From Methanothermobacter thermautotrophicus str. Delta H (lineage in GTDB: Archaea > Methanobacteriota > Methanobacteria > Methanobacteriales > Methanothermobacteraceae): a stretch of 32,000 bases of DNA. Below are positions 1,166-32,000 of this stretch, piece by piece (position 1 is the first letter of the stretch; every line of letters begins with the position of its first letter). Location of the stretch: positions 570,001-602,000 of the forward strand of contig NC_000916.1 in assembly GCF_000008645.1 (NCBI RefSeq), read 5' to 3'. The position numbers were made by a program, and so were the translations under genes. The notes beneath the pieces are model-generated. The model did not search any database and was not told where the DNA came from. It saw only the letters and a list, made by a program, of their open reading frames with translations.

Positions 1166-1280
1166 CACTTTTAAAAATAACAGTCCCCCTCCACATACTG
1201 ACCTGGAAAGATGATGTTTAGGAGGCCAGAAAAAAGGAACAACTGGAACATTGAAGGTGGGTTTTTCAGAAACCGGGTTC

Positions 1281-2477
1281 TCAGGAATCAGGCCTCTTAA
1301 CTCTCCTGTAGACAAGATCCCCTGGCCGGACCCTGTCCTCAACAAGGAGGCCAACCTCCCCACCTTCAGCCACCTCTACCGATTCCCCCTCTATCTGGAG
1401 GGACTTAACACGCTGTATGAGGGCCCCGGTGGTTTTTCCCTGGATTATAACCTCATCACCCACCCTGAGGGGTCTCCATAGTCGTAGTCTTGCTGCACCG
1501 ACCTTCCTGTAGTAATTAACTACCTCTCCAATGTCCTCCTTGATGTATTCGGATATGTTTCCGCTGCTACCGTTCTCAGGTTCGCTGAAATAGAATCCCG
1601 TGCTGAAGCCCCTGTTGAAGACCTTTCTAAGTTCACTGAGCCAGCGCTCCTCAAATCTCCACTCACCACTGAGGTACCTGTCCAGGGCCTCCCTGTAGAC
1701 ACCTGTCACCGTTGCAACGTAATCAGCAGGGCGCCCTCGACCCTCAATTTTAAGTGCATGGACACCTGCATCAACAAGTTCAGGTATGTGCTCGATCATG
1801 CAGAGATCCGCGGGACTCAGGAGGTAGCTCCTTACAGCCTCTGAAGCTGACACCTCAAGGTCGAATTCACCGTCCTCGGATACCAGTCTCCAGCTCTTCC
1901 TGCAGGGCTGCAGGCAGTCACCACAGTTTGCACTTCTGCCATAGAGGTAGGAACTCAGGTAGCACCTCCCTGAGATGGCGGTGCAGAGGGCTCCGTGAAC
2001 AAAGACCTCAACCTCAACCGGTGAAGCCGACGCAATCCCTGCGATTTCTCTGAGGGACAGTTCCCTTGAGAGTATAGCCCTTGAGACCCCCATGTCCCTG
2101 AGTATGGTGAGTGTACGGGTGTTTGTAATGTTTGCCTGTACACTTACATGGACATCCAGCCCGCATTCAGCTGCAAGGTCCACCGCTGCAAGGTCAGAGG
2201 CTATGACAGCATCAACACCTGCGGAGTGGAGTTCTGGAAAGATATTCTTGAGCCTCTCAACATCATCATCCCTGAGGGCCGTGTTGGTGCAGACATATAG
2301 TCTTGAGCCGTGGTCGTGGGCCCTCTCCACCGCCTCTGCAACCTCACTTACCCTAAAGTTATCTGCCCGGGCCCTCATGTTGCAGCCCTCGAGTCCAATG
2401 TAGACTGCATCCGCCCCTGACCTGAGGGCTGCCATGAGGGAAGAAAAGTCTCCGGCCGGTGATAGGAGTTCAGGCAT
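1281..2477 (-). CDS. U32-family protein (historically 'peptidase/collagenase U32'), Fe-S cysteine-motif type
   Basis: ORF 1281..2516. The sequence EVFVHGALCTAISGRCYLS fits the U32 signature E-x-F-x2-G-[SA]-[LIVM]-C-x4-G-x-C-x-[LIVM]-S, and further Cys follow (CGDCLQPC). I prefer ATG 2477 (MPELLSPAGD...) because the track's TTG start lies inside a TATA-like element. Confidence 0.85.
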   Translation of the reverse strand: MPELLSPAGDFSSLMAALRSGADAVYIGLEGCNMRARADNFRVSEVAEAVERAHDHGSRLYVCTNTALRDDDVERLKNIFPELHSAGVDAVIASDLAAVDLAAECGLDVHVSVQANITNTRTLTILRDMGVSRAILSRELSLREIAGIASASPVEVEVFVHGALCTAISGRCYLSSYLYGRSANCGDCLQPCRKSWRLVSEDGEFDLEVSASEAVRSYLLSPADLCMIEHIPELVDAGVHALKIEGRGRPADYVATVTGVYREALDRYLSGEWRFEERWLSELRKVFNRGFSTGFYFSEPENGSSGNISEYIKEDIGEVVNYYRKVGAARLRLWRPLRVGDEVIIQGKTTGALIQRVKSLQIEGESVEVAEGGEVGLLVEDRVRPGDLVYRRVKRPDS

Positions 2478-2502
2478 CTCAATCACTGAAAAACAATCCT
2501 TA

Positions 2503-2510
2503 ATTTTATA
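2503..2510 (-). promoter_or_regulatory. TATA-box-like element (TATAAAAT on the minus strand) about 26 nt upstream of the U32 ATG
   Basis: The minus strand reads TTGTTGTATAAAATTAAGGATTGTTTTTCAGTGATTGAGATG. The spacing suggests a leaderless or very short-leader mRNA. Confidence 0.4.
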
Positions 2511-2540
2511 CAACAATGAAAATCAGCAGTCAGGGTCCCA

Positions 2541-3965
2541 TCATCTGGAGCAGGACCTCATGGCCTCATATTCACTTATGTCAGATGGTAGGGGTGTGGG
2601 GTAGTCCCCGTCAAGGCATCCCGTGCACAGGAATCCCTTCTTTATACCTATGCACTCCACCAGGGACTCGATGCTGAGGTAGCCCAGGGAATCAACACCT
2701 ATTATCCTCCTTATCTCCTCAACGTTCCTGGTGGATGCTATGAGCTCCTTCTTCGTTGCCATTGCTATGCCATAGTAGCACGGGGACTTTATGGGTGGGC
2801 AGCCTATCCTCAGATGTATCTCCTCTGCCCCGGCATCCCTTATGATGTCAATGAGTGCCCTTGAGGTTGTCCCCCTCACTATACTGTCATCGATGAGTAC
2901 TATGCGTTTACCCTCAAGTTCGGACCTTATGGGGTTCATCTTGAGTTTAACCGCTGTTTCACGTTCCTCCTGGGTCGGCATTATAAATGTACGACCCACG
3001 TACCTGTTCTTTATCAGGCCCTCACCGTAGGGTATCCCTGAGGCCCTTGAGTATCCTATGGCCGCCGGGATGGATGAGTCAGGTACGGGTACAACCACGT
3101 CTGCGTTGGCCGGGTGCTCCCTGTAGAGGGCCTCCCCAATATTGAGGCGGACCCTGTATACGTTGCGCCCGTCGATTACACTGTCCGGCCTTGCGAAGTA
3201 GACGTACTCAAACATGCAGTGGGCCCTCCTGGTGTTGGGGGCGTTTGCAACCCAGTAGGATTTGCCCCGGTTCAGGTGGAGTATCTCACCGGGCTGGACG
3301 TCCCTTACATGCTCGGCACCTATGACATCAAAGGCCACGGTCTCCGAGGCCACGATCTGGGTGCTGCCCTTCCTTGCAAAGGCCAGTGGTTTTATACCCA
3401 CAGGGTCCCTGACGACATAGAGGTCCTGGTTCAGAAGCACCACCAGGGAATATGATCCCACCAGCTGCTCTGAAACCCTCTTTATGGAGTATATCATGTT
3501 CGGTTTCTCATCGTATTCCCTGCTGAGGAGGTGGCAGATGACCTCTGAGTCCGTCGTTGAGACAAAGTTGTGACCCTCCTCCTCGAGTTCCTCCCGGAGT
3601 TCCATGGAGTTTATGATGTCTCCATTGTGGGCTATTGCAATTTTACCTCCCTGAAATTCGCTCCAGAATGGCTGAGAATTCTCAATCCTTGATTCGCCTG
3701 TGGTTGAGTAGCGCACGTGTCCTATCCCGACGTTCCCCTTAAGTTCCTCTAGCTTCTCAGGATTGAAGACGTCGCAGACCAGCCCCATTCCCCTGTGTGT
3801 CAGTATATCGTTCCCATTGAATGTTGAGATCCCTGCAGACTCCTGTCCCCTGTGCTGCAGTGCGTAGAGCGCATAATATATCTGGGAGGCCACACCGGTT
3901 TTCTTATCCTGTGAGTAAATCCCTACAATACCGCATTTATCTCTCACTTCAGATTCTCCCAACAA
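2541..3965 (-). CDS. purF: Amidophosphoribosyltransferase (glutamine-PRPP amidotransferase)
   Basis: 474-aa ORF. It has a short propeptide then the Ntn nucleophile CGIVGIY, the PRPP-binding loop [12 protein letters not shown], and C-terminal Cys residues typical of the Fe-S type PurF. The start is TTG 3965, or GVG-type GTG six codons in. Confidence 0.95.
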
Positions 3966-6812: not shown

Positions 6813-8924
6813 ATGATCAGTTTAAGCACAACAGCCCTGAAGGTGCTTGAGGAGAGATACCTTCTCAGGGGTGAGGGTGGTGAGGTTGTAGAGACACCAG
6901 AGGAGATGTTCAGGAGGGTTGCGCGGGCCGTTGCATCTGCAGATGAGGCCTACGGTGATGACCCTGCAGTTGCGGAGGAGGCCTTCTACTCGGTTATGGG
7001 TAACCTTGAGTTCCTCCCAAATTCCCCGACCCTCATGAATGCAGGCACGCCCATCAACCAGCTCTCCGCCTGTTTTGTACTCCCTGTTGAGGACTCAATT
7101 GATAGTATATTCAGCTCCCTGAGGGATATGGCCATCATCCACAAATCCGGTGGGGGTGTTGGCTTCTCATTTTCAAGGTTAAGACCCAGAGGGGACATCG
7201 TCGCGTCCACAATGGGTGTTGCCTCGGGGCCGGTGTCCTTCATGAGGATATTCGATGTTGCGGTTGACGTTATAAAGCAGGGCGGGCGAAGAAGGGGCGC
7301 CAATATGGGTGTCCTCCATGTGAGCCACCCCGACATATTCAGCTTCATAGACGCCAAGTCAAGGGAGGGTCCCCTGCGGAACTTCAACCTCTCAGTCGCC
7401 GTACCTGATGAGTTCATGGATGACCGCCCGGTGGATCTGATAAACCCCAGGAACGGTGAGGTGGTTGACTCGGTAGAATCCAGGGTGATACTTAAGAGGA
7501 TCGTGGAGGCAGCCTGGAGGTCTGGAGATCCCGGGATCCTCTTTGAGGACCGTATAAACCGCTACAACCCCACTCCACAACTCGGGAGGATAGAGGCAAC
7601 CAACCCCTGTGTATCCGGTGACACCATTGTAATGACATCCGGGGGTCCGCGGACAGTGGCTGAACTGGAGGGCAAGCCCTTCACCGCACTTATCAGGGGC
7701 TCAGGGTACCCCTGCCCCTCAGGTTTCTTCAGGACCTGTGAACGGGACGTATATGATCTTAGAACCAGGGAGGGTCATTGCTTAAGGTTGACCCATGATC
7801 ACAGGGTCCTTGTAATGGATGGTGGTCTGGAATGGCGTGCCGCCGGTGAACTTGAAAGGGGAGACCGCCTTGTGATGGATGATGCTGCAGGGGAGTTTCC
7901 GGCACTTGCAACCTTCAGAGGCCTCAGGGGCGCCGGCCGCCAGGATGTCTATGACGCCACTGTCTACGGTGCCAGTGCATTCACAGCCAATGGATTCATA
8001 GTCCACAACTGTGGGGAGCAGCCACTCCTCACCCATGAATCATGCAATCTGGGGTCAGTTAATCTCAGCCTCATGGTAGGCCCCTCCGGTATTAACTGGG
8101 AGAAGCTCCGGAGGACCATCCATGTGGCAGTGCACTTCCTTGACAATGTGATAGACGTTAACAGCTACCCCCTCCGTCCCGTGGAGGAGATGACACTGAG
8201 AACCCGTAAGATAGGGCTGGGTGTCATGGGCTTTGCTGATATGCTGATAAAACTTGGAATACCCTACAATTCAGTGGCTGCCCTTGAGGTGGCCGGAAGG
8301 GTAATGTCATTCATATCATCTGAGGCCAGGAGGGCCTCCATGGAACTTGCCAGAGAGAGGGGATCATTCCCTGAATTTAAGGGCAGCATATGGGATATCC
8401 AGGGATTTGAGTGCATGAGGAACGCCACATTAACCACCATAGCCCCAACTGGTTCCCTGAGTATAATAGCAGGCACCAGCAGTGGAATTGAGCCCCTATT
8501 TGCCGTGTCCTTCACAAGGAACATCCTGGGAAGGAGCTTCCATGAGCTGCACCCCCTCTTTAAGACGATGGCGGGAAGACTTGATAAGAGATCCCTTGAG
8601 GCCATAGAATCCCGGGGGAGTCTGAGGGGTGTCCCCGGGGTGCCTGCGAGGATAAGGAGGCTCTTTGTGACTGCACATGAAATAGACCCTGTATTCCATG
8701 TTAAAATGCAGGCCGCCTTCCAGCGGTACGTGGACAATGCTGTATCAAAAACAGTGAATCTGCCAGCTGATTCATCACCTGCTGACGTTGAAAGGGTGTT
8801 CAGGGCCGCCCATGAGCTTGGCTGCAAAGGTGTTACTGTTTACAGGTATGGCAGTAAGGTGGATGAGGTCCTGAGGTTCCCTGAATATGCGGGTTCATGC
8901 CGTGATATGACCTGTCCTAATTAA
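6813..8924 (+). CDS. nrdJ: Class II (adenosylcobalamin-dependent) ribonucleotide reductase, interrupted by a mini-intein
   Basis: 703-aa ORF. Class II RNR blocks are present (LPNSPTLMNAGT, SACFVLP, GGGVGFSFSRLRP, GGRRRGANM). The catalytic N-P-C-G-E-Q-P-L motif is split as ...EATNP | intein | CGEQPLL. Confidence 0.95.
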   Translation: MISLSTTALKVLEERYLLRGEGGEVVETPEEMFRRVARAVASADEAYGDDPAVAEEAFYSVMGNLEFLPNSPTLMNAGTPINQLSACFVLPVEDSIDSIFSSLRDMAIIHKSGGGVGFSFSRLRPRGDIVASTMGVASGPVSFMRIFDVAVDVIKQGGRRRGANMGVLHVSHPDIFSFIDAKSREGPLRNFNLSVAVPDEFMDDRPVDLINPRNGEVVDSVESRVILKRIVEAAWRSGDPGILFEDRINRYNPTPQLGRIEATNPCVSGDTIVMTSGGPRTVAELEGKPFTALIRGSGYPCPSGFFRTCERDVYDLRTREGHCLRLTHDHRVLVMDGGLEWRAAGELERGDRLVMDDAAGEFPALATFRGLRGAGRQDVYDATVYGASAFTANGFIVHNCGEQPLLTHESCNLGSVNLSLMVGPSGINWEKLRRTIHVAVHFLDNVIDVNSYPLRPVEEMTLRTRKIGLGVMGFADMLIKLGIPYNSVAALEVAGRVMSFISSEARRASMELARERGSFPEFKGSIWDIQGFECMRNATLTTIAPTGSLSIIAGTSSGIEPLFAVSFTRNILGRSFHELHPLFKTMAGRLDKRSLEAIESRGSLRGVPGVPARIRRLFVTAHEIDPVFHVKMQAAFQRYVDNAVSKTVNLPADSSPADVERVFRAAHELGCKGVTVYRYGSKVDEVLRFPEYAGSCRDMTCPN
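7608..8009 (+). mobile_element. 134-aa mini-intein (no homing-endonuclease domain) inside nrdJ
   Basis: It starts with Cys (TGT 7608-7610; CVSGDTIVMTSGG...) and ends ...FIVHN (AAC 8007-8009), followed by +1 Cys (TGT 8010-8012). Block B (TxxH) is seen as LTHDH. The 402-nt length preserves the host frame. I recognise it as the Mth RIR1-type intein. Confidence 0.95.
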
Positions 8925-9003
8925 TAGAAGATTTAAAGCAGGTCCTTCATGATCACCAGTTTTTTCAAGAGCATTTCTAATTAAATTAATAGAAGATTTA
9001 AAG
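8917..9003. repeat. Direct repeat CTAATTAA(..)TAGAAGATTTAAAG, two copies 65 nt apart; the first overlaps the nrdJ stop codon
   Basis: AATAGAAGATTTAAAG occurs at 8923-8938 and again at 8988-9003, and both copies are preceded by CTAATTAA. Confidence 0.8.
8960..8965 (+). terminator. Oligo-T tract (T6) 36 nt after the nrdJ stop, a candidate archaeal intrinsic terminator
   Basis: The sequence reads gatcaccagTTTTTTcaag. Archaeal RNAP terminates at T-runs. Confidence 0.35.
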
Positions 9004-9038
9004 GTGATAAAATGGACACCAGACCTTTAAATCTTCTA
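8990..9038. repeat. Perfect 16-bp inverted repeat (TAGAAGATTTAAAGGT / ACCTTTAAATCTTCTA) with a 17-nt spacer; hairpin-capable
   Basis: The arms are 8990-9005 and 9023-9038, verified base by base. The left arm is the second copy of the direct repeat and contains the SD-like AAGGTGAT of a 20-codon micro-ORF. Confidence 0.85.
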
Positions 9039-9040
9039 AG

Positions 9041-9079
9041 GAGCTTCATAAGGACGCTGTACGTTGTCTCATGAAGCTC
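9041..9079. repeat. Second inverted repeat, 9-bp arms GAGCTTCAT / ATGAAGCTC with a 21-nt spacer
   Basis: The arms are 9041-9049 and 9071-9079, immediately after the first hairpin. Confidence 0.7.
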
Positions 9080-9245
9080 AAAATGTTACCCATCATAATA
9101 TGGGCACATTTTTCATGTTTTGCATTCGCCTTATTTAAAGCTTTATCAAAATCTCCTGTAGAGCAGCATGCATGCTAATCTTTTCCCTGGCTTGAAACAT
9201 CGATCTTATCGATGCTGTACTTCTCTTTGGAATATTCAACACCCC

Positions 9246-10769
9246 CTACAATACCCTGTATACAACGAAGTCCTGATTCTCATAGATTTTCTGAAGGTAG
9301 GGATACTCCAGATCGCTTATATTGATGCGGTTTGGGTTGTAGAATAGGAAACTGCTGGAGGCGTTGAATTTAAAATCTCCACTCGCTTTAAGTCTTTTAT
9401 CAAATACAAGATAACTGATTTCCCTTTCAGTCAGCTCATCCCTTGAAGGGATCTCAGATTTCTCATATAACAGGGAATCCACAGGTCTGTTTGTATATGC
9501 CATTACAAATCCCCCAGTGAAGTAATTTGATAGGGAGATCTTACCATCTTCATTTTGACTGTTGAACCATTTTGCAAGTTCAAATTCTGAATCAGTAGGA
9601 GGAGCAATGTTTATCCTTCCATAAGCAGTCATTGCACCGTAATCGGCTACCTTTGAGCTTGAAAGGTTGTTGAAGGCCTGGAAAACGGCAAATATGAAGA
9701 GGGCTATCAGGAGAATTCTTGCAATATCCTTATTTTTATTTTTGATTGCCTCCACGACGGATATCAAGCCTGAGGATGCCAGGATTGTGAGGGGAATCAT
9801 TATGTATATGAGTACCCTGTAGGTTATGACGTTAATTCCAAAGTAGTAGGACTTTGAGAGAATAAACATTGAAATTATCCATAAAAGTATGAGGCGATCC
9901 CTTAACTCAAATCTTCTGATGGCAGGTATGATGCCTGCGACAGCCAGTACCAGAACAAAATATCCAAGGGCATCGGGATATTTAAGGATACTGAGACTCC
10001 TGGAAACAGAAAGAGATGTGGCGACACCACCATGTCCAAGACTCTTAAAGTAAAATGCTGGTAGCCACCATACTGATGCAATTAATCCTGCTGTTCCAAT
10101 AAGGATGGCATACCCCTTCAAAGCCCTTTTTATAACTCCAGTGTCCCTTTCAAAGTAGAATTCAGTTATCACCAGACCCGCGGTGATGAATGTGATTGCA
10201 AAAACCAGACAGAATGTTGCGGCAGGATGTATAAGTGCGACCAAACCTGTTAAACATCCTGATATGAATGATGCTATAATTTTATCATCCTTAAAAAATT
10301 CATAGAAGAAGAAAATGCTCAGAGGAAGGAATATGAGAGCCATGTTCTCAGGCAGTGATGAACCAAGCCTCATGGCAATTGAGCCAGAGAAAAGGATTAA
10401 ACCAGCAAAGATGCCAACGTACTTATCTTCATATAACCTTGAAGCGACCACAGTAACTGATAAAGCAACCAGAGCTGCTAAAAATGGTTGCATTAGCCTT
10501 GCCACATCAAAGAGGTCCATTCTGAGAACATAACCTAAAACTAGAATTACTAGGTGAAAAACTGGGGGATAATTAATAATGGTTCCCGGAGCGTTGTATA
10601 TAGGGTCAAAAAATGTTAAACCATTTGCCATGTAAACCTTTGAAAGGTGAATATGATAGAATATATCCCACCCTATGGGCCAAGAATACTTAAGAGTCAC
10701 TGAAAGAGTTATTAAAAATATTATAATGGACGGTATGAGGTAAATAAATTTTTGATACAGATCTTTCAT
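9246..10769 (-). CDS. Large polytopic membrane protein with a C-terminal extracytoplasmic domain; GT-C-like (putative glycosyltransferase/polymer-assembly protein), function not established
   Basis: 507-aa ORF with a strong SD (AGGAGGAT, 5-nt spacer). More than 10 hydrophobic segments are followed by a soluble tail of about 120 aa. This resembles the architecture of PMT/ArnT/AglB-type GT-C enzymes, with acidic or aromatic residues in the first loop (WPIGWDIFYH...FFDP). AT-rich codon usage. Confidence 0.6.
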   Translation of the reverse strand: MKDLYQKFIYLIPSIIIFLITLSVTLKYSWPIGWDIFYHIHLSKVYMANGLTFFDPIYNAPGTIINYPPVFHLVILVLGYVLRMDLFDVARLMQPFLAALVALSVTVVASRLYEDKYVGIFAGLILFSGSIAMRLGSSLPENMALIFLPLSIFFFYEFFKDDKIIASFISGCLTGLVALIHPAATFCLVFAITFITAGLVITEFYFERDTGVIKRALKGYAILIGTAGLIASVWWLPAFYFKSLGHGGVATSLSVSRSLSILKYPDALGYFVLVLAVAGIIPAIRRFELRDRLILLWIISMFILSKSYYFGINVITYRVLIYIMIPLTILASSGLISVVEAIKNKNKDIARILLIALFIFAVFQAFNNLSSSKVADYGAMTAYGRINIAPPTDSEFELAKWFNSQNEDGKISLSNYFTGGFVMAYTNRPVDSLLYEKSEIPSRDELTEREISYLVFDKRLKASGDFKFNASSSFLFYNPNRINISDLEYPYLQKIYENQDFVVYRVL

Positions 10770-11057
10770 GGAACATCCTCCTATCGTGTCATGTACACCT
10801 TGTTAGGGCTATGTTCCACTTGAATTTAAGTTTTTTTCTGCATTCAAATTAGTCACAGAAAAACATCTGCAGAACCAAAGCGTGGTTACCACGGTAACAA
10901 TAAAAGATACTCCATAAGATTAAATAGGATGATGTTAATGACCTCATTATGATAGGAGCATGTAGAGTACTGGTATTCCTTAAAAAATGAGAAAATGTTA
11001 ACATGATGCTGCTCATGTCTGAAATTAAGTTCTGAAAAAGAACTTGGAGAGATAGAA

Positions 11058-11822
11058 ATGAAAATCGGTCGATTAACAATAATAGACATTTTGATAATCC
11101 TTTTCCTGGCCTCGCTAGTTTTATATGGCTTTTTCAAAACCTCAGACATCGATTCAAACATTCAATCATTCACATTCGATTCCTCTGAAATGACTAAGGT
11201 CCAGATAAAGTACAATGATCTTTACAGTAAGGGAAAAATCATAAACAGCAAAATCCATGGATTTAATTCCTTAAAGCAGAAGAGAGAAGAAATCTATGGT
11301 GAAGTTATATGGGTGGGAACCGTTAACGGAAAGGTGGAAGTCCTCCTTGACGTTAATGGAAAGAAAATTCTTGCCGGAGGATATGATGATAAATTTGCAG
11401 ATTATTACATTGATTCCATCACACTGGAAGCTGCAGGTAGTAAGAACGCCACTGACATCATTATAGAACCCCTTAAAATTAACAGAATGTCCGATTTAAT
11501 TCTGGATATTCCCGGGCTAAAATATGAGCTAACAACAAATATACCCATCAGCGATGTGGATGCATCCAGATTCCAGGAACTTACAAAGGAACTGTACAGC
11601 AGAGAAAGATACGTGCCGATCACATTAAATTCCCCTAACAGCAGGATAGAAGTATTTCAGGCCACACCCGAAGCCTTGAAGGTATCTGATGAAGTCCTCG
11701 GAGATCTAAATGGTCAGACAGATTTCATCACGATAAGGGTATACAACGCCAATGAGGACGTAATAGAGAAAATAAAAGGTAAGTACTCCGTCATAAAGGT
11801 CGTTAATCTCAACAACCTATAA
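11058..11822 (+). CDS. Hypothetical membrane-anchored extracytoplasmic protein
   Basis: 254-aa ORF with SD GGAGAG. It has a single N-terminal TM or signal anchor (LTIIDILIILFLASLVLYGFF) followed by a hydrophilic beta-rich domain. I recognise no family. Confidence 0.6.
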   Translation: MKIGRLTIIDILIILFLASLVLYGFFKTSDIDSNIQSFTFDSSEMTKVQIKYNDLYSKGKIINSKIHGFNSLKQKREEIYGEVIWVGTVNGKVEVLLDVNGKKILAGGYDDKFADYYIDSITLEAAGSKNATDIIIEPLKINRMSDLILDIPGLKYELTTNIPISDVDASRFQELTKELYSRERYVPITLNSPNSRIEVFQATPEALKVSDEVLGDLNGQTDFITIRVYNANEDVIEKIKGKYSVIKVVNLNNL

Positions 11823-11844
11823 AATTTTGAAGGTACCGATTATT

Positions 11845-13113
11845 ATGAGCCAGATTTATGATACAACAAGAAGACTGTGTAAAAGCTTTGAATGGAAGTT
11901 TAAGGAAGCATTTATCTTCAATTTACTCCTGGCCCTCTTCATGGGTATTGAAGAGAAATGGTTAAATAGCTTTATAAAGAGTATGTATCCTGGACATAAT
12001 TTTCTCAGCTCCCTCAAAAGGAGCAGGGTACTGAAAAACCATATCTTTTCACCTCCTTCATTTATCGTGTTCTTCTCAATGTTCATGGCCCTTGCTGCCA
12101 TTCCAGTCCAGAAAACATTACAGATCAATATACTGATCGGTTTTTCATGTTTTCTTCTTTTTTCAGTGATTATGCCAGGGGTGATTCTAAGGGGTGATAG
12201 GTACCTGAGATTCAGTATTGATGACATCAGATCAATGGGTTTCACTTTATTCATTATTGGATCTGCCTTTCTGGCCATAACACTAACAGACGTTGGTGGC
12301 ATCCCCCTCCTGAAACCTTCCCTCAGATACCTCCTCAATCCGAAGCTAACTATCCCGGTTTATCTTATGATTCCAGGGACAGCTTTCATGTTAGCTTACA
12401 TAACCGATAAGATGCAAAAAAGCGTTATAGACAGATCAACTGCAAGGTTCCGGGCCATTACTGTTTCACTGACCTGTCTTGTTATGCTGGCCCTCCTGGG
12501 ATACCGGACACCCCTGGTTGCTGTAATACTCATAACCTTTATCATGGGTTATTACAGTGGATTATTCGAAATATGGGAGGTCCTGGGATCCTTCGCGGTA
12601 GCCTTAATGATAATTATGGGCATAGGTTACTTCAGATCCGTTGAGGAGTACTCATTAAGCAACCTGGGTCCGCTTACAGTTCTAAAAATGAGGGCATCAT
12701 TTACAATGAGCATACTCAACAGATTATCCGCACTTGCAGGGATGACAGGTGTTATGCATGGTGATTTAACCCTCAGCATGATTCCAGGTGCAGGTAGTGG
12801 TCCGCGAGCATTGATAGGGAAGCTGGTCCTCTGGAGAACAGGTGTTACAATCACTCCAACCCTGTTCGGTCAGATGCTTGTGGAGTTTGGTACCATCGGA
12901 GTGGCATTCGGTATGAGCATCCTTGGTCTTATCCTGGGAATTGGATACAGGATAATGCAAAAAACACGAGATTCGTTTTATATCATGCTCTACTCAATCG
13001 TGATGGCATACTGTCTCATCTCAATCGAAACTGGAATCCTTGATCAGCTCGTGGTTATCTACATTTTATGTGCATTTATTATATACATCTACAACATATA
13101 CCTTAACATATGA
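11845..13113 (+). CDS. Polytopic membrane protein, Wzy/oligosaccharide-repeat-unit-polymerase-like (tentative)
   Basis: The track ORF is 11827..13113 (TTG); I prefer ATG 11845 (MSQIYDTT...). It has about 10-12 hydrophobic helices with one larger loop, and it starts 5-23 nt after the preceding gene. The assignment rests on architecture only. Confidence 0.55.
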   Translation: MSQIYDTTRRLCKSFEWKFKEAFIFNLLLALFMGIEEKWLNSFIKSMYPGHNFLSSLKRSRVLKNHIFSPPSFIVFFSMFMALAAIPVQKTLQINILIGFSCFLLFSVIMPGVILRGDRYLRFSIDDIRSMGFTLFIIGSAFLAITLTDVGGIPLLKPSLRYLLNPKLTIPVYLMIPGTAFMLAYITDKMQKSVIDRSTARFRAITVSLTCLVMLALLGYRTPLVAVILITFIMGYYSGLFEIWEVLGSFAVALMIIMGIGYFRSVEEYSLSNLGPLTVLKMRASFTMSILNRLSALAGMTGVMHGDLTLSMIPGAGSGPRALIGKLVLWRTGVTITPTLFGQMLVEFGTIGVAFGMSILGLILGIGYRIMQKTRDSFYIMLYSIVMAYCLISIETGILDQLVVIYILCAFIIYIYNIYLNI

Positions 13114-25938: not shown

Positions 25939-26223
25939 TTATCCCTGGACCATTATGAGTTTACCTGTCTTGGGGTCACGGTAGACTGTTCCCATCTCAA
26001 CGTATCCCTGACCCGAACCCGAAGTGGTCTGTGGAGTGTCGTTAAGTTCCTGACCCTTCTGGACCTCAACAGCCTTTTTCATGGCCTCCATGGTCTCCTG
26101 TCTCTCCTGGGGAGTCATATCTGCAAATACAACGTTCTGCATGTTCCATGAGAGTACCAGGAATATCAGGAAACCGACTGAGAGTACCAGCATGGCGTCA
26201 ACCAGGTTGGCGCTTCCAGCCAT
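25939..26223 (-). CDS. ExbD/TolR-like small membrane protein (DUF2149-type)
   Basis: The track ORF starts at 26277, inside the upstream gene. I use ATG 26223 (SD GAAGAGGA), 10 nt after the ExbB-like stop. MAGSANLVDAMLVLSVGFLIFLVLSW carries the L-V-D-x-M-L-V-L Asp-in-TM motif of ExbD/TolR, followed by a periplasmic-type tail of about 60 aa. Confidence 0.7.
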   Translation of the reverse strand: MAGSANLVDAMLVLSVGFLIFLVLSWNMQNVVFADMTPQERQETMEAMKKAVEVQKGQELNDTPQTTSGSGQGYVEMGTVYRDPKTGKLIMVQG

Positions 26224-26233
26224 GGGGTCCTCT

Positions 26234-26914
26234 TCATTTTGATCCGAGAGGAGCCTTCGCCGGCGTCTGAGTGGCATTATCCATCACCTCCAGCACTGCC
26301 TCGGCCATTGTCTCAAGATTTGAGAGGTACTCCTCATACCATCTTCTCCTGACCTTGGAGATGATGTATGCTATACCCCCTGATGCAAGTCCCACAACTG
26401 TTGTATCGAAGGCTATGATGATGGCCTGGGCCAGTGTATTGATGTCACCTGCCCCGAGGGCTGCGAGTCCTGGACCCATGGGTATGAGTGTCCCCATCAG
26501 TCCAAGGGTTGGGCCGAGTCTGGTTACAATGTCTGTCTTCTCAAGGCTCTTGGCAGCCCTGAGTTCCTCATTCTCTATCAACTTCCTTGCGAGGGCCTCC
26601 CTTGATTTTGGTCCGAGTTCAGCTGTCCCTGCGATATCAGTGAGCACGGCCTTCTGGCTCTGTGGTATGTCCATCGAATCGACGACCTCAATTATCTTTT
26701 CAGGGGTTCCTGGGTTTGAAATTGATTTTATTGCCGATTCAAGTTCCTTAACATCAGTCCTTATCCTTCCAGAGTACTCTGATATGAGCCCTCCGAGGGT
26801 CACTATGGCGTATACCATGAATAACAGTAGACCTGCTATAACCGGTATGAGGAGGCTCTGGGAGACAACGTGTAGTGCACCGCTCAGTATCTCACTGCCG
26901 GGTACTGCAACCAT
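26234..26914 (-). CDS. MotA/TolQ/ExbB-family proton-channel protein
   Basis: 226 aa with three TM segments. The C-terminal core [19 protein letters not shown]...[24 protein letters not shown] resembles the ExbB/TolQ LGLLGTV...A(L/F)xTTxxGL blocks. SD AGAGGTGAT. Confidence 0.85.
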
Positions 26915-26930
26915 ATCATATCACCTCTTT

Positions 26931-27641
26931 CTATTCTATGAATGTGCTTTTTCTCTTGTTAAGGTATATTCCAAGCCCCATCAGCGCGAGGGTTCCAAGG
27001 ACGACGTATATTATTGTGTCTATCCCCGGCACCGTGAGGGGTGTCATCTTCATGCTCATGACGCTGTTCACGTTGGGGAGCACGATGGCAGCTGTCAGGA
27101 AGTATAGACCAGCAAAGAGCATGAAGTTTCCAAGTAGAACCGGGTATGGTTTCTTGATGGCGGCTGCGATCCCGTTGGCAAATACATAGAAGAAACCTAT
27201 GAATGCTGCAAGGATTATTCCTGAGTACTTGCCAAGTGTAACCGCAGATACTCCTATTATCGGTGATACCAGAATTATGCTGACGATGACCGCCCCGAAA
27301 CAGCAGGGGCAGGGTGCAACCATAGCCACACATGCAGTCTTTGCTGTGTCACGCCTGTGTTCTTTCCACTCACGGAGAGTGTGGACACCTGCGAATATGA
27401 GAATGGCTGCCATTATGATTGTTATGAGCGAACTGTAGGTGTTGAAGAAGCCCTGAACCGAGTTCATGTAGGCATTTGCCAGTGCTGAAAGGGCATAAAT
27501 CCCTAGACCGTAACCTGCGGTTATTAGGGCCGCCATCTTCCTTGATAGGCCTGCAAAGCCCATTGCCAGTCCAATCTTCACACCGAATATCAGGAGAACC
27601 GATAGGATTCCTGCCTGCCACAGTAGATTTGCAATGTCCAT
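26931..27641 (-). CDS. Polytopic membrane protein with an intramembrane C-x6-C-P-C-C motif (DUF2162-like); putative metal permease
   Basis: 236 aa from ATG 27641 (SD AAGGTG). It has about 6-7 TM helices and the motif TACVAMVAPCPCCFGAVIV at nt 27300-27332. Its stop lies 16 nt before the ExbB-like start. Confidence 0.7.
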   Translation of the reverse strand: MDIANLLWQAGILSVLLIFGVKIGLAMGFAGLSRKMAALITAGYGLGIYALSALANAYMNSVQGFFNTYSSLITIIMAAILIFAGVHTLREWKEHRRDTAKTACVAMVAPCPCCFGAVIVSIILVSPIIGVSAVTLGKYSGIILAAFIGFFYVFANGIAAAIKKPYPVLLGNFMLFAGLYFLTAAIVLPNVNSVMSMKMTPLTVPGIDTIIYVVLGTLALMGLGIYLNKRKSTFIE

Positions 27642-27681
27642 GATCCACACCTTCCACCTTCAAGTTTTGTGATAATTAGTA

Positions 27682-27689
27682 TATAAATT
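27682..27689 (-). promoter_or_regulatory. TATA box (TTTATATA on the minus strand) for the DUF2162-ExbB-ExbD operon
   Basis: The minus strand reads AATTTATATACTAATTATCACAAAACTTGAAGGTGGAAGGTGTGGATCATG, placing it about 40 nt upstream of the ATG. Confidence 0.5.
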
Positions 27690-27823
27690 AAATTATTACA
27701 GTTCCCTAAATTAAACGCCAATTTTTATTACTACATTTTTTATTACTGAGATCCGGATCCAGATAATAATTCATTCAAATAAATTTTATTTAAATTAAAG
27801 TTAATGTGATATTTAAGTTTTTT

Positions 27824-27836
27824 CAAAAGAAAAAAT
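27824..27836 (-). terminator. Oligo-T tracts just after the CobN-like stop
   Basis: The minus strand reads TAA-CCCCTTCCCCAATTATTTTTTCTTTTGAAAAAAC. Confidence 0.4.
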
Positions 27837-27850
27837 AATTGGGGAAGGGG

Positions 27851-30800
27851 TTATTTCCTTCCAGGTCCCATGAAGTAGCCCACTCCAACCAGGGCAACCA
27901 GTGCTATGACACCCAATATGGCGTACACAGGCATTCCAGTATCTGATGAACCGGAGGAACCAGATGCTGTAACCTCATATGATTTTCCTGCACCCTGTGA
28001 TGATTCAGAGCCTGCTCCCACATTCTGTGAGGAGCTCTGAGTACCTGGACTTGCCGCTGAAACACCTTCAGATCCTCCTGAGGTTCCACTACTTCCATCA
28101 TGAGGCTGCCCTCCGGGTGTTGAACCTGATTCTCCACCCTGGTTTGGGTTCTCAGATGGTGCAAAGGCTGCGGCCCCTGTGGCTTCGTATATCTTTGACT
28201 TAACCCTGGCAAGTAGATCAGGGTTAACATACTGCATTGCCCACTCCATCATTGCAAGGTTGCCGCAGCTGCAGTCACAGCATGCCACACCGTACTCAGC
28301 AACAGTGCTTGCCCATGTATTTGCAACCAGCCTCAGAGTGGCCTCATCAGCCTTCCAGAAGCCCTTATGTGCTGCTGTTAATAGCGTCCCTGTTATACTG
28401 ATCATAGAATATGCCCTGTTACCTGTGGAGAGCCATCTGTTCACACCTAGATTGTATTTGTCTTTAATGTATATGTCTGTGATCTCATTCCAGTCATAGT
28501 CATCAACAAGCTGTGGTGCGGTAACCTGCCATCCCCAGAGGTATGCGACGAACTTGTTTGAGATGGTCCTTGCACCGCTATATCCCTCGTTCATCATTGA
28601 CTTTATCCATTCAGGGTTGTAGTAGCGTGTCCTCATTTCACGTCTCATGAACTCCTGCAGTGAGACAACTTCAGGCCTTGATGGGTTGGCGTAGTAGAGC
28701 ACATTGAGTGAAGGTGCCACCCCACCGTTGACCTTCTCAATTGCCATTGAGAGGCCCCCATAGTAGTCGTAGTAGTCATCGTTGTCAATTACACCATAAA
28801 GGTTGGTGCTCCTGCTGTGGTATGCCACTGTTACACCCTTCAGGAGATTCTCAAAGAGACCTTCCATTGATGCTCCCCAGCGCGTGTTTGAGTATGCGTG
28901 ACTCATCCTTCTGAGGTATACATCGGCAAGTTCTGACCTGTTATCCCATGTCCATGCCTCTTCAACACCATGGTTAACCCCTGCGCCATAGTCACCGACA
29001 GGTGGAGCGAATATACGTGTTATGGCAGTATCACCGTCATAACCTGCGAGTACCAGCTCTACCCAGTGCTTTGCAATGTAATTGACGTTAAGTGAATCAT
29101 TTTTGTCTATGATTTTAAGAAGATCTGCCATTGTCTTAGCCTGTTTGAACTGTCCTGTGAGCAGTGGATCTAGGGCAAGGTCAAGCTGTGTCTTGAGTTC
29201 GGGGTAAGCTTGAAGGATCTTTGAGTATGATGCTCCGAGTGCAACCCTGTATGCTACGTCCATTTTGGCCAGAAGGTTGGGGAATAGATCCCTGAAGAGG
29301 CCACTGGTGGTTACTATGACATCAATCCTTGGCCTTGATGTGAGGTTTGAAAGGCCCATGCTGCTTCTCACATTATTGAGGTCTGATAGAAGCTCTGTTA
29401 AATTTGTTGGAACTATGTAGGATAGTTTTCCGCCTCCGAGCCAGGTCTTATCGTCCATCTTTGGCTGCACACCCAGCATTCTCAGGACGAATGAAACCAT
29501 TGCACCGTCGTCTCTTGCCGTCTCAACGCACCAGACCACCGCAGCCATCTTTTCAGGAATTGTATCGAGCTGGGCCAGGGCCATATCTGCGAGCCTCTTA
29601 CCAAGATCCCACGCCACCTTTGTTGGTAGTGTGTTGTCGTCCTGGGCATAGAAGTTTCTTCCTGTTGGAAGGGCGTATGGGGCCTTAACTGGATCTCCTC
29701 CCTTTGCAGGAGTTATGTAGTGTCCGGATAGACCCTCCATAAGTGCATCCATTTCACTGGAAGGACTGTCCTTAAGGAGTGATGCATACTGGAGTGCCAG
29801 CTCAAGCTTTGAGTGGAGTGTTGCCTTGAGAGATGGATCCGTGATGTTTTCAAGTAGTGTGTCGATCGATGTTCCCCTTAAAAGTTCCATTATCATCTCT
29901 ACAGTGGCATTGTTAAGTGCTTCAGCCTGTTCAAAGGTGAGGTTGCTGAAATTCCATCCATTCATCATAGATATGAGTCTCTGTAGTGATGGGTCCACGT
30001 CGCTGTCTGGTGAGAGCATCCCTGATACCATGAGGGCCACTTCACTGTCAGTCCAGTTGAGACCAAATGTGTCAAGTCCATAGGGCATCAGTGTACTGGT
30101 AATGCTCAGAAGGTAGTCATGCACCCTGTCTATGTCATCGTCCGTCATGTTGGTTGCGTTAATCCCAAGATCCCTTGCAAGGTCAAGTTTGATTATGGTT
30201 TCCCTGATCTGCTTTGCATATTCGTCTCTCATGGGGTTTCCAGTTGGTGTAGCCTCGTAACTTGACACGAGCCCTGCAAGTTCCTGAAGGTCACCGTAGA
30301 GCTTTGTTCTTGTCAGCGGTGGTGTTAAATGATCTATGATCACTGCAAGTCCTCTTCTCTTGGCTTGCAGACCCTCTCCAACACCATCCATTATGTAGAT
30401 GTATAGTGATGGTGTATCTCCTATGCATATATCAGGGTAATCAAAGGATGAGAGGGCATACTGTTTCCTTGGTGTCCACTCGTAGGTTGCGTGTCTTCCA
30501 ACGTGTATCTGCGCATTTGCACCGAAAACCGTGTTTACCCATGCATACCATGCAAGGTAGCAGTGAGGTGGTGGAACTATTGTGCTGTGGTAGAGGTTTG
30601 CAGCGTCGGCTTCCCATCCCCTCTGTGGTTCCGGGCCTATGAAGACATTTCCAAACATGAGCCCCGGGATCACTACGTACTTCCTTCCATTTCTTGTTAC
30701 AACCATGACGTTTCCTGGTGGTTCACCCCAGCCAGTCATCCCTGAAACATTGAGGGCCATGAACTGGTTTTTGTAGATGTAGAAGAGATCCCATGCCGTT

Positions 30801-32000
30801 GTGTTGGATGTGTTCCAGATGACTGCTGTCAGGGCAGCGCTCATTTTGTTTATAAGATCAATTGCTGTTCCTGCGATCTGAGGGTGTGTATTCGCATTTG
30901 AGATCATCTCCTGGGTCCAGCGGTTGAGTGTCTTGAGCATTTCATCCCTGACCCTGCAGTCTCCTTCATTGATACACTGCACCGCAACCCTTGTGAGTTC
31001 CTCTATGTATCCAACGGGACCTTCAACCATCTCCTTGCGGGCAACAGGATCAAGTGTATTGAACCATGCAAGGTAGTCCTCGTATGGCCACAGTATTGCA
31101 TTTGAACTGTTTGCAAGTTTCTCAAGTTCACCGGGGGCCCAGTTGGCAACATTTATACCGTTTTTGATCATCATCTCAACCAGTGCATCAGCGTCCTGCG
31201 GTATTTCACCAACACTGTAGCCCTCTGCCTTCATGCGCTTGAGTATCTCAATGATACTTTCGGGGACATTAAGGTAACTTGCACCTATGTTCTGCTTACC
31301 CGGCGGGTAGTTGTAGTATACAATTGCCACCTTTTTGTCACTATTTGCCATGGTCTGGAGTCTGATCCAGTTGAAGGCCCTGCTGACAAGTTTCTCTATC
31401 CTCTCTGGAATGGTCACTGTTATGTCCCACTGTGCACCTGTTTCAGGATCTGAACCTATCTCACCCACACCTATGGCAAGTGGTTCTATCTGACCCTGCA
31501 TCTCTGGCTGTGCACACTGCCAGTAAACTGACATCCAGCTGAATCCCTCCTCTGAGACAATCCACTGACCAATTGTTCTGTATGTAGAACTGGTTATCAT
31601 TGCCCTCAGAACAGGGATATTTGATCTATCAAAGAACTTGGTAACACTGGCACCGGATGTTGTTGACCCGGTTATAAACGTCAGCATATCTATGATAACG
31701 TTTGCCTTGACAGGGTATTTTTCAGGGTTGGCCTCGTACTGAACAACGTTTGATGCATCTGTGAGAAACTTTACTAGGGCTGAATATACGTTCACCGGCT
31801 GTACTGTGCTGATCTTGAGACTCCTTATTAGGTTACCATTATCAAGTATCTGAACCTCATAAACATTCGCACTTGAGACGCTGGTAACACCAAGGATTGA
31901 TGTGAGGTCAGTGTAGTTCCCTATTCCCCTGATGGCAGTTATGTTGTAGGTCTGGTTTGGCATGCATAGCGTCTGGATAATGTTCTGCATACCAGTCTGG
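27851..32000 (-). CDS. CobN/Mg-chelatase-H-family giant protein (partial; N-terminus lies beyond the window end) with a Ser/Gly-rich linker and a C-terminal TM anchor
   Basis: The frame is open from the window edge (codons upstream of the track's Met are ...QTG-M with no stop), giving more than 1380 aa. CobN-like blocks run throughout (e.g. VAIVYYNYPPGKQNIGASYLNV, HVGRHATYEWTPRK, GGDPVKAPYALPTGRNFY, DYGAGVN, YYDYYGG). The tail is ...GSSGSSDTGMPVYAILGVIALVALVGVGYFMGPGRK*. Confidence 0.9.
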   Translation of the reverse strand, partial: QTGMQNIIQTLCMPNQTYNITAIRGIGNYTDLTSILGVTSVSSANVYEVQILDNGNLIRSLKISTVQPVNVYSALVKFLTDASNVVQYEANPEKYPVKANVIIDMLTFITGSTTSGASVTKFFDRSNIPVLRAMITSSTYRTIGQWIVSEEGFSWMSVYWQCAQPEMQGQIEPLAIGVGEIGSDPETGAQWDITVTIPERIEKLVSRAFNWIRLQTMANSDKKVAIVYYNYPPGKQNIGASYLNVPESIIEILKRMKAEGYSVGEIPQDADALVEMMIKNGINVANWAPGELEKLANSSNAILWPYEDYLAWFNTLDPVARKEMVEGPVGYIEELTRVAVQCINEGDCRVRDEMLKTLNRWTQEMISNANTHPQIAGTAIDLINKMSAALTAVIWNTSNTTAWDLFYIYKNQFMALNVSGMTGWGEPPGNVMVVTRNGRKYVVIPGLMFGNVFIGPEPQRGWEADAANLYHSTIVPPPHCYLAWYAWVNTVFGANAQIHVGRHATYEWTPRKQYALSSFDYPDICIGDTPSLYIYIMDGVGEGLQAKRRGLAVIIDHLTPPLTRTKLYGDLQELAGLVSSYEATPTGNPMRDEYAKQIRETIIKLDLARDLGINATNMTDDDIDRVHDYLLSITSTLMPYGLDTFGLNWTDSEVALMVSGMLSPDSDVDPSLQRLISMMNGWNFSNLTFEQAEALNNATVEMIMELLRGTSIDTLLENITDPSLKATLHSKLELALQYASLLKDSPSSEMDALMEGLSGHYITPAKGGDPVKAPYALPTGRNFYAQDDNTLPTKVAWDLGKRLADMALAQLDTIPEKMAAVVWCVETARDDGAMVSFVLRMLGVQPKMDDKTWLGGGKLSYIVPTNLTELLSDLNNVRSSMGLSNLTSRPRIDVIVTTSGLFRDLFPNLLAKMDVAYRVALGASYSKILQAYPELKTQLDLALDPLLTGQFKQAKTMADLLKIIDKNDSLNVNYIAKHWVELVLAGYDGDTAITRIFAPPVGDYGAGVNHGVEEAWTWDNRSELADVYLRRMSHAYSNTRWGASMEGLFENLLKGVTVAYHSRSTNLYGVIDNDDYYDYYGGLSMAIEKVNGGVAPSLNVLYYANPSRPEVVSLQEFMRREMRTRYYNPEWIKSMMNEGYSGARTISNKFVAYLWGWQVTAPQLVDDYDWNEITDIYIKDKYNLGVNRWLSTGNRAYSMISITGTLLTAAHKGFWKADEATLRLVANTWASTVAEYGVACCDCSCGNLAMMEWAMQYVNPDLLARVKSKIYEATGAAAFAPSENPNQGGESGSTPGGQPHDGSSGTSGGSEGVSAASPGTQSSSQNVGAGSESSQGAGKSYEVTASGSSGSSDTGMPVYAILGVIALVALVGVGYFMGPGRK

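Follow-up and report, generated by a model that had tools for sequence, protein, structure and literature searches.

The closest described counterpart of the locus analyzed here is the hmuYRSTUV cluster of Bacteroidota, in which HmuS is annotated as 'cobaltochelatase subunit CobN', HmuT as a hypothetical membrane protein, HmuU as a MotA/TolQ/ExbB protein and HmuV as DUF2149; the literature also characterizes HmuV as showing homology to no known family. HmuS of B. thetaiotaomicron has been established by genetics, biochemistry and cryo-electron microscopy as a membrane-anchored anaerobic heme de-chelatase (PMC12583661; PDB 9d26). It faces the periplasm, and heme turnover is lost in the H538A variant (PMC12583661). 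Class I chelatases need ATP-driven partners, and what the many CobN paralogues of archaea do has explicitly been called unclear (PMC12583661). Here, we describe a four-gene locus from the MTH673 region of Methanothermobacter thermautotrophicus str. Delta H, situated at 25939-32000 of a 32,000-nt stretch (NC_000916.1, positions 570,001-602,000; hereafter the window) and encoding a CobN-like protein, a DUF2162 membrane protein, a MotA-like channel subunit and a small DUF2149 protein. On balance, we favor the view that these genes form the core of a nickel-starvation, proton-motive-force-driven metal-acquisition machine of the Methanobacteriales, an outer-membrane-free counterpart of the HmuS-T-U-V proteins of Bacteroidota.

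All four genes run in the same direction on the minus strand, as stated in an original prediction made from the sequence of this stretch, and each was assigned to a family by running Pfam models on the window proteins. The CobN/ChlH/HmuS-superfamily gene, the MTH673 orthologue, extends from 27851 to >32000 (CobN-Mg_chel, E 4.6e-263). Its open reading frame (ORF) is open at the window edge, in keeping with the >1380 residues predicted earlier: the window holds the 3' 1382 codons of a gene of ~1696 codons, which encodes 1696-1708 residues in near-identical genomes. It is followed by genes for the DUF2162 polytopic membrane protein (26931-27641, or to 27650 if a GTG start is used; PF09930, E 3.2e-73), the MotA/TolQ/ExbB-family channel subunit (26234-26914; PF01618 MotA_ExbB, E 2.8e-10) and the DUF2149 single-pass protein (25939-26277; PF09919, E 1.4e-24). 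The 16-nt spacing between the DUF2162 and MotA-like genes was predicted correctly. The 10-nt gap drawn between the MotA-like gene and the small one, by comparison, rested on an internal ATG at 26223 and most probably gives way to a 44-nt overlap; the DUF2149 start is best placed at 26277 because 20 homologues conserve the Arg-rich N-terminus (R7, R8, E16, D17 and P18 in their alignment), which also aligns with Bacteroides HmuV. The missing N-terminus of the CobN-like protein was taken from near-identical Methanothermobacter genomes, represented by the orthologue at locus L001, which differs from the window protein at 17 of 1382 shared positions (98.8% identity). The DUF2149 sequence matches its M. 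thermautotrophicus counterpart at 100% identity, and the MotA-like protein is unchanged on several Methanothermobacter chromosomes.

Intact HmuT, HmuU and HmuV sequences from three Bacteroides loci served for comparison with Hmu. The two systems share the order CobN-like protein, polytopic protein of ~230 aa, MotA_ExbB protein and DUF2149 protein. By BLASTP, the MotA-like protein is 33% identical to Bacteroides HmuU over its full length (E 9e-38), and the DUF2149 protein is 27% identical to HmuV (E 1e-8). The CobN-like protein is predicted to be extracytoplasmic and membrane-anchored, as is HmuS, which has transmembrane (TM) regions at both ends, and a C-terminal helical segment with a C...C motif is common to the window protein and HmuS alone, HmuS being the sole PDB chain that matched this segment (E 5.7e-6). 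The original prediction held mechanism and substrate to be undescribed and so overlooked hmuSTUV, with its identical gene order, its MotA_ExbB and DUF2149 proteins and, in HmuS, a demonstrated heme de-chelatase (PMC12583661); its interpretation was right in outline but wrong in supposing that nothing comparable was known. The archaeal locus provides a HmuU/HmuV-type motor in the absence of an outer membrane or a TonB-dependent receptor, and we therefore argue that this motor has its conserved partner in the CobN-like ectoenzyme or in the membrane protein that accompanies it.

The archaeal locus also departs from Hmu in several respects. It has neither the HmuY hemophore nor the TonB-dependent HmuR, since there is no outer membrane, and its upstream genes encode instead an FmdE-domain protein, which adds surface modules that Hmu does not have, and a nicotianamine synthase (NAS). 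The position of HmuT is filled by DUF2162. HmuT has no Cys motif, and the idea that it is a DUF2162 protein was rejected (hhalign probability 0.08% for B. fragilis HmuT; nothing by phmmer against 148 family representatives). The HmuS residues His-1209 and Glu-1212 (LSLDHxxEFMGG) are Asp and Asp in the archaeal protein, which moreover has no Met-rich insertion and cannot be aligned with HmuS over its N-terminal ~490 aa. Finally, the archaeal locus answers nickel limitation, as seen in a sister species, whereas Hmu answers iron or heme limitation.

This nickel response is already published, under no annotation other than 'transporter': 'Transporter, MTBMA_c10530' is singled out for its induction at limiting Ni in proteomic work on M. 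marburgensis from 2025 (PMC12350162), and MTH673 and MTBMA_c10550-10570 were listed as chelatase-like coding sequences (CDS) by Kaster et al. 2011 (PMC3087415). The gene order in M. marburgensis is NAS, FmdE (968 aa), CobN-like, DUF2162, MotA-like, DUF2149, HisA-like and PfkB. Therefore, c10580 corresponds to the FmdE protein (105 kDa), c10540 to DUF2162, c10530 to the MotA-like protein and c10520 to DUF2149. With identities assigned in this way by synteny, the source data of the study (5 µM Ni vs. 50-250 nM Ni) show that the MotA-like protein rises ~35-fold at low Ni, from about 5.5e6 to about 1.6-2.2e8, and is flat under Fe or H2/CO2 limitation, and that DUF2162 goes from 0 to about 1e6 and is undetected in the Fe and H2/CO2 tables (PMC12350162). 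The FmdE surface protein shows the strongest induction of the locus, ~300-fold from about 1.9e7 to about 5.5-7.3e9, where it makes up a few percent of total signal; it fell under Fe limitation and did not rise under H2/CO2 limitation (PMC12350162). The operon boundary is placed at the HisA-like gene, since the HisA-like protein did not rise at low Ni (PMC12350162). CobN1, another paralogue, was up ~300-fold at low Ni, and a putative ABC transporter was also induced (PMC12350162). The original prediction had proposed that the response to nickel be measured, and in the M. marburgensis proteome the operon does respond (PMC12350162).

The N-terminus beyond the window, in which a signal peptide was to be sought according to the original prediction, reads MRKHLITVTAVLLMLMFCQSVAA followed by ADNST in the L001 orthologue, a Sec-type signal peptide in which a basic n-region precedes a hydrophobic core and a cleavage site of small residues. 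At the opposite end, the Ser/Gly linker and membrane anchor foreseen there were located as a Ser/Gly/Thr-rich low-complexity linker (27935-28162), with the conserved juxtamembrane motif KSYEV at its end (27971-27985), and a TM anchor, MPVYAILGVIALVALVGVGYF (27872-27934; hydropathy 2.4 over 19 residues), with a short basic extension, MGPGRK, after it. Apart from the signal sequence and this anchor, the protein has no hydrophobic segment. It carries 28 N-x-S/T sequons vs. 14.2 expected from composition, and ten other window-encoded proteins carry 0-3 each. Because of the signal peptide, the C-terminal anchor and the excess of sequons, the chelatase-like domain is predicted to be extracellular; a cytoplasmic CobN domain, which had been named beforehand as the outcome that would speak against the idea, is not what these features indicate. 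All 41 CobN-like neighbors found in 38 related loci end in a TM helix and G-Y-F-[KR], and most have a comparable signal peptide at the N-terminus.

Within the ectodomain, the chelatase-superfamily active-site loop IHVGRHATYEW (30476-30508) aligns with the HFGTHG loop of HmuS, and its second His is the counterpart of catalytic His-538, retained in 37 of 37 readable archaeal neighbors. The domain-V active-site motif VIDNDDYYDYYGG (28754-28792), identified by alignments to 9d26, 9uk9 and 4zhj, contains the Asp/Asp pair that replaces His-1209/Glu-1212 of HmuS; the form D-x-D-D occurs in 38/38 archaeal orthologues, and the Asp state at the His-1209 position matches CobN (DSDDYY), while ChlH has His. 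A Cys cluster, ACCDCSCGN (28259-28285; sequence and orthologue alignment), lies in the helical domain that closes the ectodomain and is a candidate metal site or disulfide knot. Of 38 orthologues, 36 have it as CC[DH][CH][ST]C; HmuS, with CSGFVC, keeps the outer Cys pair only. In phmmer searches of the PDB, HmuS was narrowly the best match (381 bits, vs. 360 for CobN and 336 for ChlH), and the propionate-pocket stretch SRSTNLYG is closer to PRQSNTWG of HmuS than to CobN or ChlH. The N-terminal 493 aa gave no significant PDB sequence match and no alignment to HmuS, where this region holds the ligands Met-79 and His-254. HmuS 695-922 corresponds to residues 656-734 of the query, the difference including the 120-residue Met-rich insertion. 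Against the NCBIfam CobN/BchH equivalogs no threshold was approached, the best score being 760 bits vs. a cut-off of 1619. MTH673 and MTH674 appear as non-specific preys in a yeast two-hybrid paper, which is uninformative.

The MotA-like protein scores 40.5 bits on PF01618 (gathering cut-off, 22.9), which bears out the earlier assignment to the MotA/TolQ/ExbB-type channels. It has three TM helices and two Thr-containing helices of the ExbB/TolQ type. Segments of 12 and 10 residues lie at 26468-26503 and 26387-26416, respectively. The closest PDB chain is flagellar MotA (E 8e-4), with the match confined to the last two TM helices. DUF2149 consists of an Arg-rich cytoplasmic N-terminus, one TM helix and an external tail of ~65 aa. 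The helix, NLVDAMLVLSVGFLIFLVLS (26149-26208), carries Asp27 (codon 26197-26199; NLVDAMLVL), which is invariant across 20 homologues and which we propose, from alignment, as the proton-binding residue. In hhalign, with a manually entered ExbD sequence, the Asp27 helix falls in register with the Asp25 helix of ExbD (18 columns, E 0.006). Thus, the TM Asp of the ExbD/TolR signature in the original prediction is upheld and its family assignment is not: the protein is DUF2149, no ExbD Pfam match was obtained in it even at E<=10, and the resemblance to ExbD is confined to the TM helix. A DUF2149 profile search of PDB sequences likewise found no relative, and the AlphaFold2 model, a helix and a short hairpin at low confidence, is poor (predicted local distance difference test score, pLDDT, 57; predicted template modeling score, pTM, 0.22). 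Both proteins are very distant from every solved stator; a 5:2-type stoichiometry and rotation are inferred by analogy. A Zorya-like anti-phage reading was also considered and rejected, PADLOC having given only a weak ZorA match (E 0.0024) through the shared MotA domain and none for the other three proteins.

The DUF2162 protein comprises 236 aa from the ATG and has ~6-7 TM helices. The match to PF09930 ('predicted transporter') covers the whole profile (positions 1-223 of 223); an exact database look-up of the form with the GTG start returned no match, the databases using the ATG. The CPCC motif noted in the original prediction is part of an intramembrane Cys motif, C-x-A-M-x-A-P-C-P-C-C-F-G (C-x6-C-P-C-C; 27294-27332), that is near-invariant in 23 homologues. 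Its APCPCC core is present in 39 of 39 CobN-linked DUF2162 proteins and degenerate in four loci that have FmdE only, and remote members retain P-C-P-x-C. The family is rare (204 of 1.84 billion representatives at E<=0.001), and an AlphaFold2 model (pLDDT 73) found no fold match in the PDB. We propose DUF2162 as the metal-conducting subunit.

The association of these genes was surveyed by using a DUF2149 alignment to scan a set of genomes in which each species is represented once, which yielded >540 relatives. The best 80 loci, annotated by phmmer, are nearly all from Methanobacterium, Methanobrevibacter, Methanosphaera and their relatives, with one Firmicutes metagenome-assembled genome (MAG); gene content was counted in the 53 of these that offer 9 kb or more of DNA upstream. 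The Methanomicrobiales are represented by one MAG contig (L038), with synteny identical to Methanothermobacter, that is possibly mis-binned and was not relied on. A MotA-like gene adjoins DUF2149 in 79 of the 80 loci. DUF2162 is found in 47 of 53 loci and a CobN-like protein, at times as two tandem copies, in 35; an FmdE-domain surface protein occurs in six, and one or the other kind of surface protein in 39. In the Firmicutes MAG, DUF2162-MotA-DUF2149 is followed by a secreted, anchored CobN-like protein and flanked by a NikA-type solute-binding protein/ABC system, FmdE and CbiM. CbiM/NikM genes lie within 10 kb in eight archaeal loci, one of them confirmed by Pfam at 1.3e-44. Hence, the co-conservation of the CobN-like, DUF2162, MotA-like and DUF2149 genes for which a survey had been suggested is found across Methanobacteriales and in one Firmicutes MAG. 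No TonB/TolA and no AAA+ CobS/T-ChlI/D genes were found in the window or 10 kb upstream (42 kb), in agreement with the absences noted in the original prediction.

Upstream of the CobN-like gene, beyond the window (L001, 1-3785), lies a gene for a protein of 933-968 aa with two FmdE domains (HGHVCMG and HNHVCPG). Like the CobN-like protein it has a signal peptide, an S/G linker and a TM anchor, and it contains 21 sequons vs. 9.0 expected. The next gene upstream encodes the nicotianamine synthase; by gene numbering, the FmdE protein is MTH674 and the synthase MTH675, the latter being the characterized thermonicotianamine synthase.

Taken as a machine, the MotA-like and DUF2149 proteins would make up a proton-driven stator of the ExbB/ExbD style, in which protons would pass via Asp27. 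The CobN-like and upstream FmdE-domain proteins would be extracellular capture modules, held on the Ser/Gly linker and an anchor that we refer to as the YEV-TM-GYF module. The FmdE modules may bind nickel directly through their HxHxC sites, and the CobN-like module may hold a metal chelate in its class I chelatase cavity, from which a reverse chelatase reaction would free Ni(II), and possibly Co(II), as HmuS frees heme iron. The chelate would be a tetrapyrrole or of the thermonicotianamine type. Energy would be required for release because capture of nanomolar nickel requires tight binding, and a motor driven by the proton motive force would stand in for the work of the ChlI/D or CobS/T AAA+ proteins because there is no ATP outside the membrane. 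Drawing on the proton gradient, the stator would deform the ectoproteins via their membrane anchors, and the freed ion would enter through DUF2162, lined with the APCPCC thiolates, or be passed to NikMNQO. The direction of the reaction, the coupling of motor to anchor and the transport path through DUF2162 are our inferences. A more far-reaching proposal, which we put forward as possible but doubtful, is that MotA-like/DUF2149 represents a distinct class of outer-membrane-independent proton motor that recognizes its clients, ectoproteins anchored at the C-terminus, by the YEV-TM-GYF module, replaces the AAA+ ATPase of class I chelatases and drives an extracellular chelatase fold backwards to pull Ni(II) from a chelate in the environment into DUF2162, a new thiolate-lined channel.

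The same proteins can be read in other ways. The cavity of class I chelatases is made to hold tetrapyrroles, the stretch at the propionate pocket resembles that of HmuS, and HmuS binds heme and gives protoporphyrin IX (PMC12583661), all of which would suit tetrapyrrole salvage, whereby the surface CobN-like protein would bind an external corrinoid or an F430- or heme-type macrocycle and pass it, with or without its metal, to DUF2162 for import, the motor energizing the hand-over. The literature on P. gingivalis proposes HmuTUV as an inner-membrane heme transporter, and external F430 would presumably gain value under Ni limitation. Nonetheless, we regard salvage as unlikely, given that the ~236 aa and the thiolate motif of DUF2162 suggest a path for ions and not a macrocycle permease, that the FmdE modules and CbiM/NikM neighbors indicate handling of the free ion, that the heme ligands of HmuS could not be found and its Met-rich insertion is absent, and that these methanogens make B12 and F430 themselves (PMC3087415). 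Iron extraction from heme under anaerobic conditions, as in Bacteroides, would make the locus a true Hmu orthologue. HmuS is indeed the best PDB match, HmuU and HmuV homologues are present, and CobN-like 'BtuS' proteins are reported in the literature to go up in some iron/sulfur regimes in Methanosarcina; yet the Asp in place of His-1209 in all 38 orthologues, the loss of the Met-rich insertion, the absence of HmuY and HmuR from the locus and the lack of any rise under Fe limitation, where c10580 fell, make this very improbable.

A different possibility is suggested by loci that lack DUF2162, in which the motor pair adjoins diverse giant secreted proteins (CARDB, PKD, DUF11, beta-helix), and by the single C-terminal YEV-TM-GYF module of the adjacent surface proteins, which resembles a recognition tag. 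By analogy to GldLM/PorLM of type 9 secretion, MotA-like/DUF2149 might use the proton motive force to move, remodel or export large wall-spanning proteins of archaea with pseudomurein walls, the CobN-like protein being one class of cargo and its link to the motor having nothing to do with metal transport as such. We consider this improbable: surface proteins with ordinary Sec signal peptides and TM anchors need no added export step, the Bacteroidota pair goes with an inner-membrane-anchored enzyme, induction is specific to nickel limitation and APCPCC is retained throughout the CobN-linked DUF2162 proteins. Least credible of all, to the point of being nearly negligible, is the suggestion made for MTH673 in 2011, namely that it acts in the cytoplasm as a chelatase of F430 or B12 biosynthesis (PMC3087415). 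The CobN-Mg_chel domain and the CobN-like DxDDYY motif would fit, but the protein has a signal peptide, excess sequons and a TM anchor, no AAA+ partner is encoded, its score falls far below the NCBIfam CobN/BchH equivalog cut-offs and Ni insertion in F430 synthesis is now attributed to a class II chelatase, CfbA (PMC8179277).

Several observations weigh against the nickel-acquisition machine that we favor. The nickel response is documented for the rest of the locus and not for the CobN-like protein itself, whose gene is divided into three CDS in the annotation of the Marburg type strain (PMC3087415); these are absent from the Ni-limitation tables (PMC12350162). HmuTUV is dispensable for heme turnover by purified HmuS (PMC12583661), and therefore the motor is not strictly required for de-chelation. 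DUF2162 is without structural or functional precedent, DUF2149 falls outside the ExbD family with a poor AlphaFold2 model, and the stoichiometry and rotation of the motor are assumed. NAS adjoins the locus in only 4 of 53 other loci. Most serious, the motor pair also stands beside adhesin-like surface proteins at loci devoid of DUF2162; these proteins bear no metal signature, and the role of the motor may therefore be more general.

The three CDS of the Marburg type strain would encode proteins of 66, 94 and 21 kDa, and another M. marburgensis genome (L007) has a single ORF of 1643 aa. The split could be a frameshift of the laboratory strain or a sequencing artefact.

Variant loci differ in what accompanies the motor. 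In five of them (L015, L020, L043, L074 and L088; about 8200-10300), DUF2162 is replaced by a secreted DUF11 protein of ~280-310 aa, and the motor adjoins adhesin-like giants with CARDB, PKD and CHB_HEX_C domains; nearby ORFs resemble, by N-terminal sequence alone, subunits of formylmethanofuran dehydrogenase and components of ABC transporters. In three others (L039, L042 and L045), a 705-aa protein of the ChlI/ChlD type, AAA+ plus VWA, is encoded at about 1000-3130 (minus strand), ~5.5 kb upstream of and on the opposite strand to a DUF2162-MotA-DUF2149 triad that has no CobN-like neighbor and is flanked by NosD-like beta-helix secreted proteins. The motor-adjacent surface proteins that were inspected, whether CobN-like, FmdE-like, DUF11 or other, share the YEV-TM-GYF C-terminal module, consisting of x-[YH]-E-[VI], 10-20 S/T/N-rich residues, a TM helix and G-[YF]-[FLY]-[KR]. 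It was noted at 27872-27985 in the window, at 3600-3785 in L001, 8263-9102 in L015, 4807-6588 (minus) in L039 and 3473-5668 in L082, and also occurs in L020, L043, L074 and L088. Other secreted neighbors in those loci end differently, in VPMQKTGxPxAGLA...GRRK. No Pfam or NCBIfam model matched the module, which may be a motor docking tag or else a lineage-wide anchor.

Between the CobN-like and DUF2162 genes lies the AT-rich spacer of the original prediction, 200 bp (27651-27850) with 76.5% A+T. An oligo-T run or terminator follows just past the CobN-like stop codon (27824-27838), and then come two direct repeats of AGTAATAAAAA (27722-27732 and 27737-27747), the sequence GTAATAATTTAA (27688-27699) abutting the TATA box, the TATA box itself, TTTATATA (27680-27687), which had also been foreseen, and, ahead of DUF2162, the ribosome-binding site GGTGGAAGGTG (27648-27658). 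The arrangement of GTAATAA and TATA is also kept in M. marburgensis, in the FmdE and CobN-like promoters and in Methanobacterium. The GTAATAA/AAGTAATAAT element touches the TATA box in the FmdE, CobN-like and DUF2162 promoters of both Methanothermobacter species (window, 27680-27747; L001, 9160-9235, 3895-3925 and 860-925; equivalents in L007), and in Methanobacterium it flanks the TATA box ahead of DUF2162 as an inverted repeat. AGTAATAA has two copies in the whole 32-kb window, both in the DUF2162 spacer and 15 bp apart, and 7-mers of the promoter element are ~3-fold enriched over 55 upstream regions. We regard this element as a candidate operator at which a nickel-responsive repressor could act.

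Elsewhere in the window, a low-GC island at 9001-12000 (37-40% GC vs. about 50% elsewhere) resembles a surface-glycan cassette that differs in composition from its surroundings. It encodes a DUF6541 membrane protein (9246-10769, on the minus strand) as well as a weak TrmB-like ORF and an O-antigen-polymerase-like protein (11827-13113) whose gene extends beyond the island. The ORF of a class II ribonucleotide reductase (6813-8924) gave a Pfam intein-splicing match below threshold (33.8 bits vs. a cut-off of 35.8), consistent with MTH652, which according to the literature is the sole intein-containing gene of M. thermautotrophicus.

If the more far-reaching proposal for the motor holds, HmuUV of Bacteroidota would energize HmuS and not, as currently drawn, the TonB-dependent receptor HmuR. 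The motor partner argued for above changes the way in which Hmu of the medically relevant Bacteroides and Porphyromonas ought to be depicted. The locus connects archaeal CobN paralogues with a nickel-starvation response and a proton-driven motor in organisms whose demand for nickel, for F430, [NiFe]-hydrogenases and carbon monoxide dehydrogenase/acetyl-CoA synthase, is unusually large. M. thermautotrophicus is now genetically tractable.

Set beside the proton-driven motors ExbB-ExbD, TolQ-TolR and MotA-MotB, the archaeal pair has a like MotA_ExbB channel with three TM helices and conserved Thr-containing helices, a single-pass partner with its N-terminus inside and an invariant TM Asp, and translational coupling of the two genes. 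It differs in that the partner, DUF2149, has no ExbD/TolR periplasmic domain, the host has no outer membrane, no TonB/TolA-like gene occurs in the annotated neighborhoods and the likely clients are ectoproteins anchored at the C-terminus, as opposed to the N-terminally anchored TonB. With the class I chelatases CobN-CobS-CobT and ChlH-ChlI-ChlD, the CobN-like protein shares the full-length CobN-Mg_chel signature, the active-site His and the acidic DxDDYY; unlike those cytoplasmic proteins it is predicted to be secreted and anchored, is encoded without AAA+ partners and has ~300 extra N-terminal aa and a C-terminal linker and TM anchor. The NikMNQO/CbiMNQO ECF transporters and systems with an NAS-like metallophore (staphylopine Cnt) are in part genomic neighbors of the locus, which is induced by Ni limitation together with a putative ABC transporter; they show no sequence relationship to it, its energy source would be the proton motive force vs. 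ATP, and capture would fall to large, enzyme-like proteins in place of solute-binding proteins. Judged by sequence, the locus resembles the HmuS-(T)-U-V core, yet several of the features by which a protein would be recognized as HmuS are absent from it. Relative to Hmu, the new elements are the membrane partner, DUF2162, and the capture modules.

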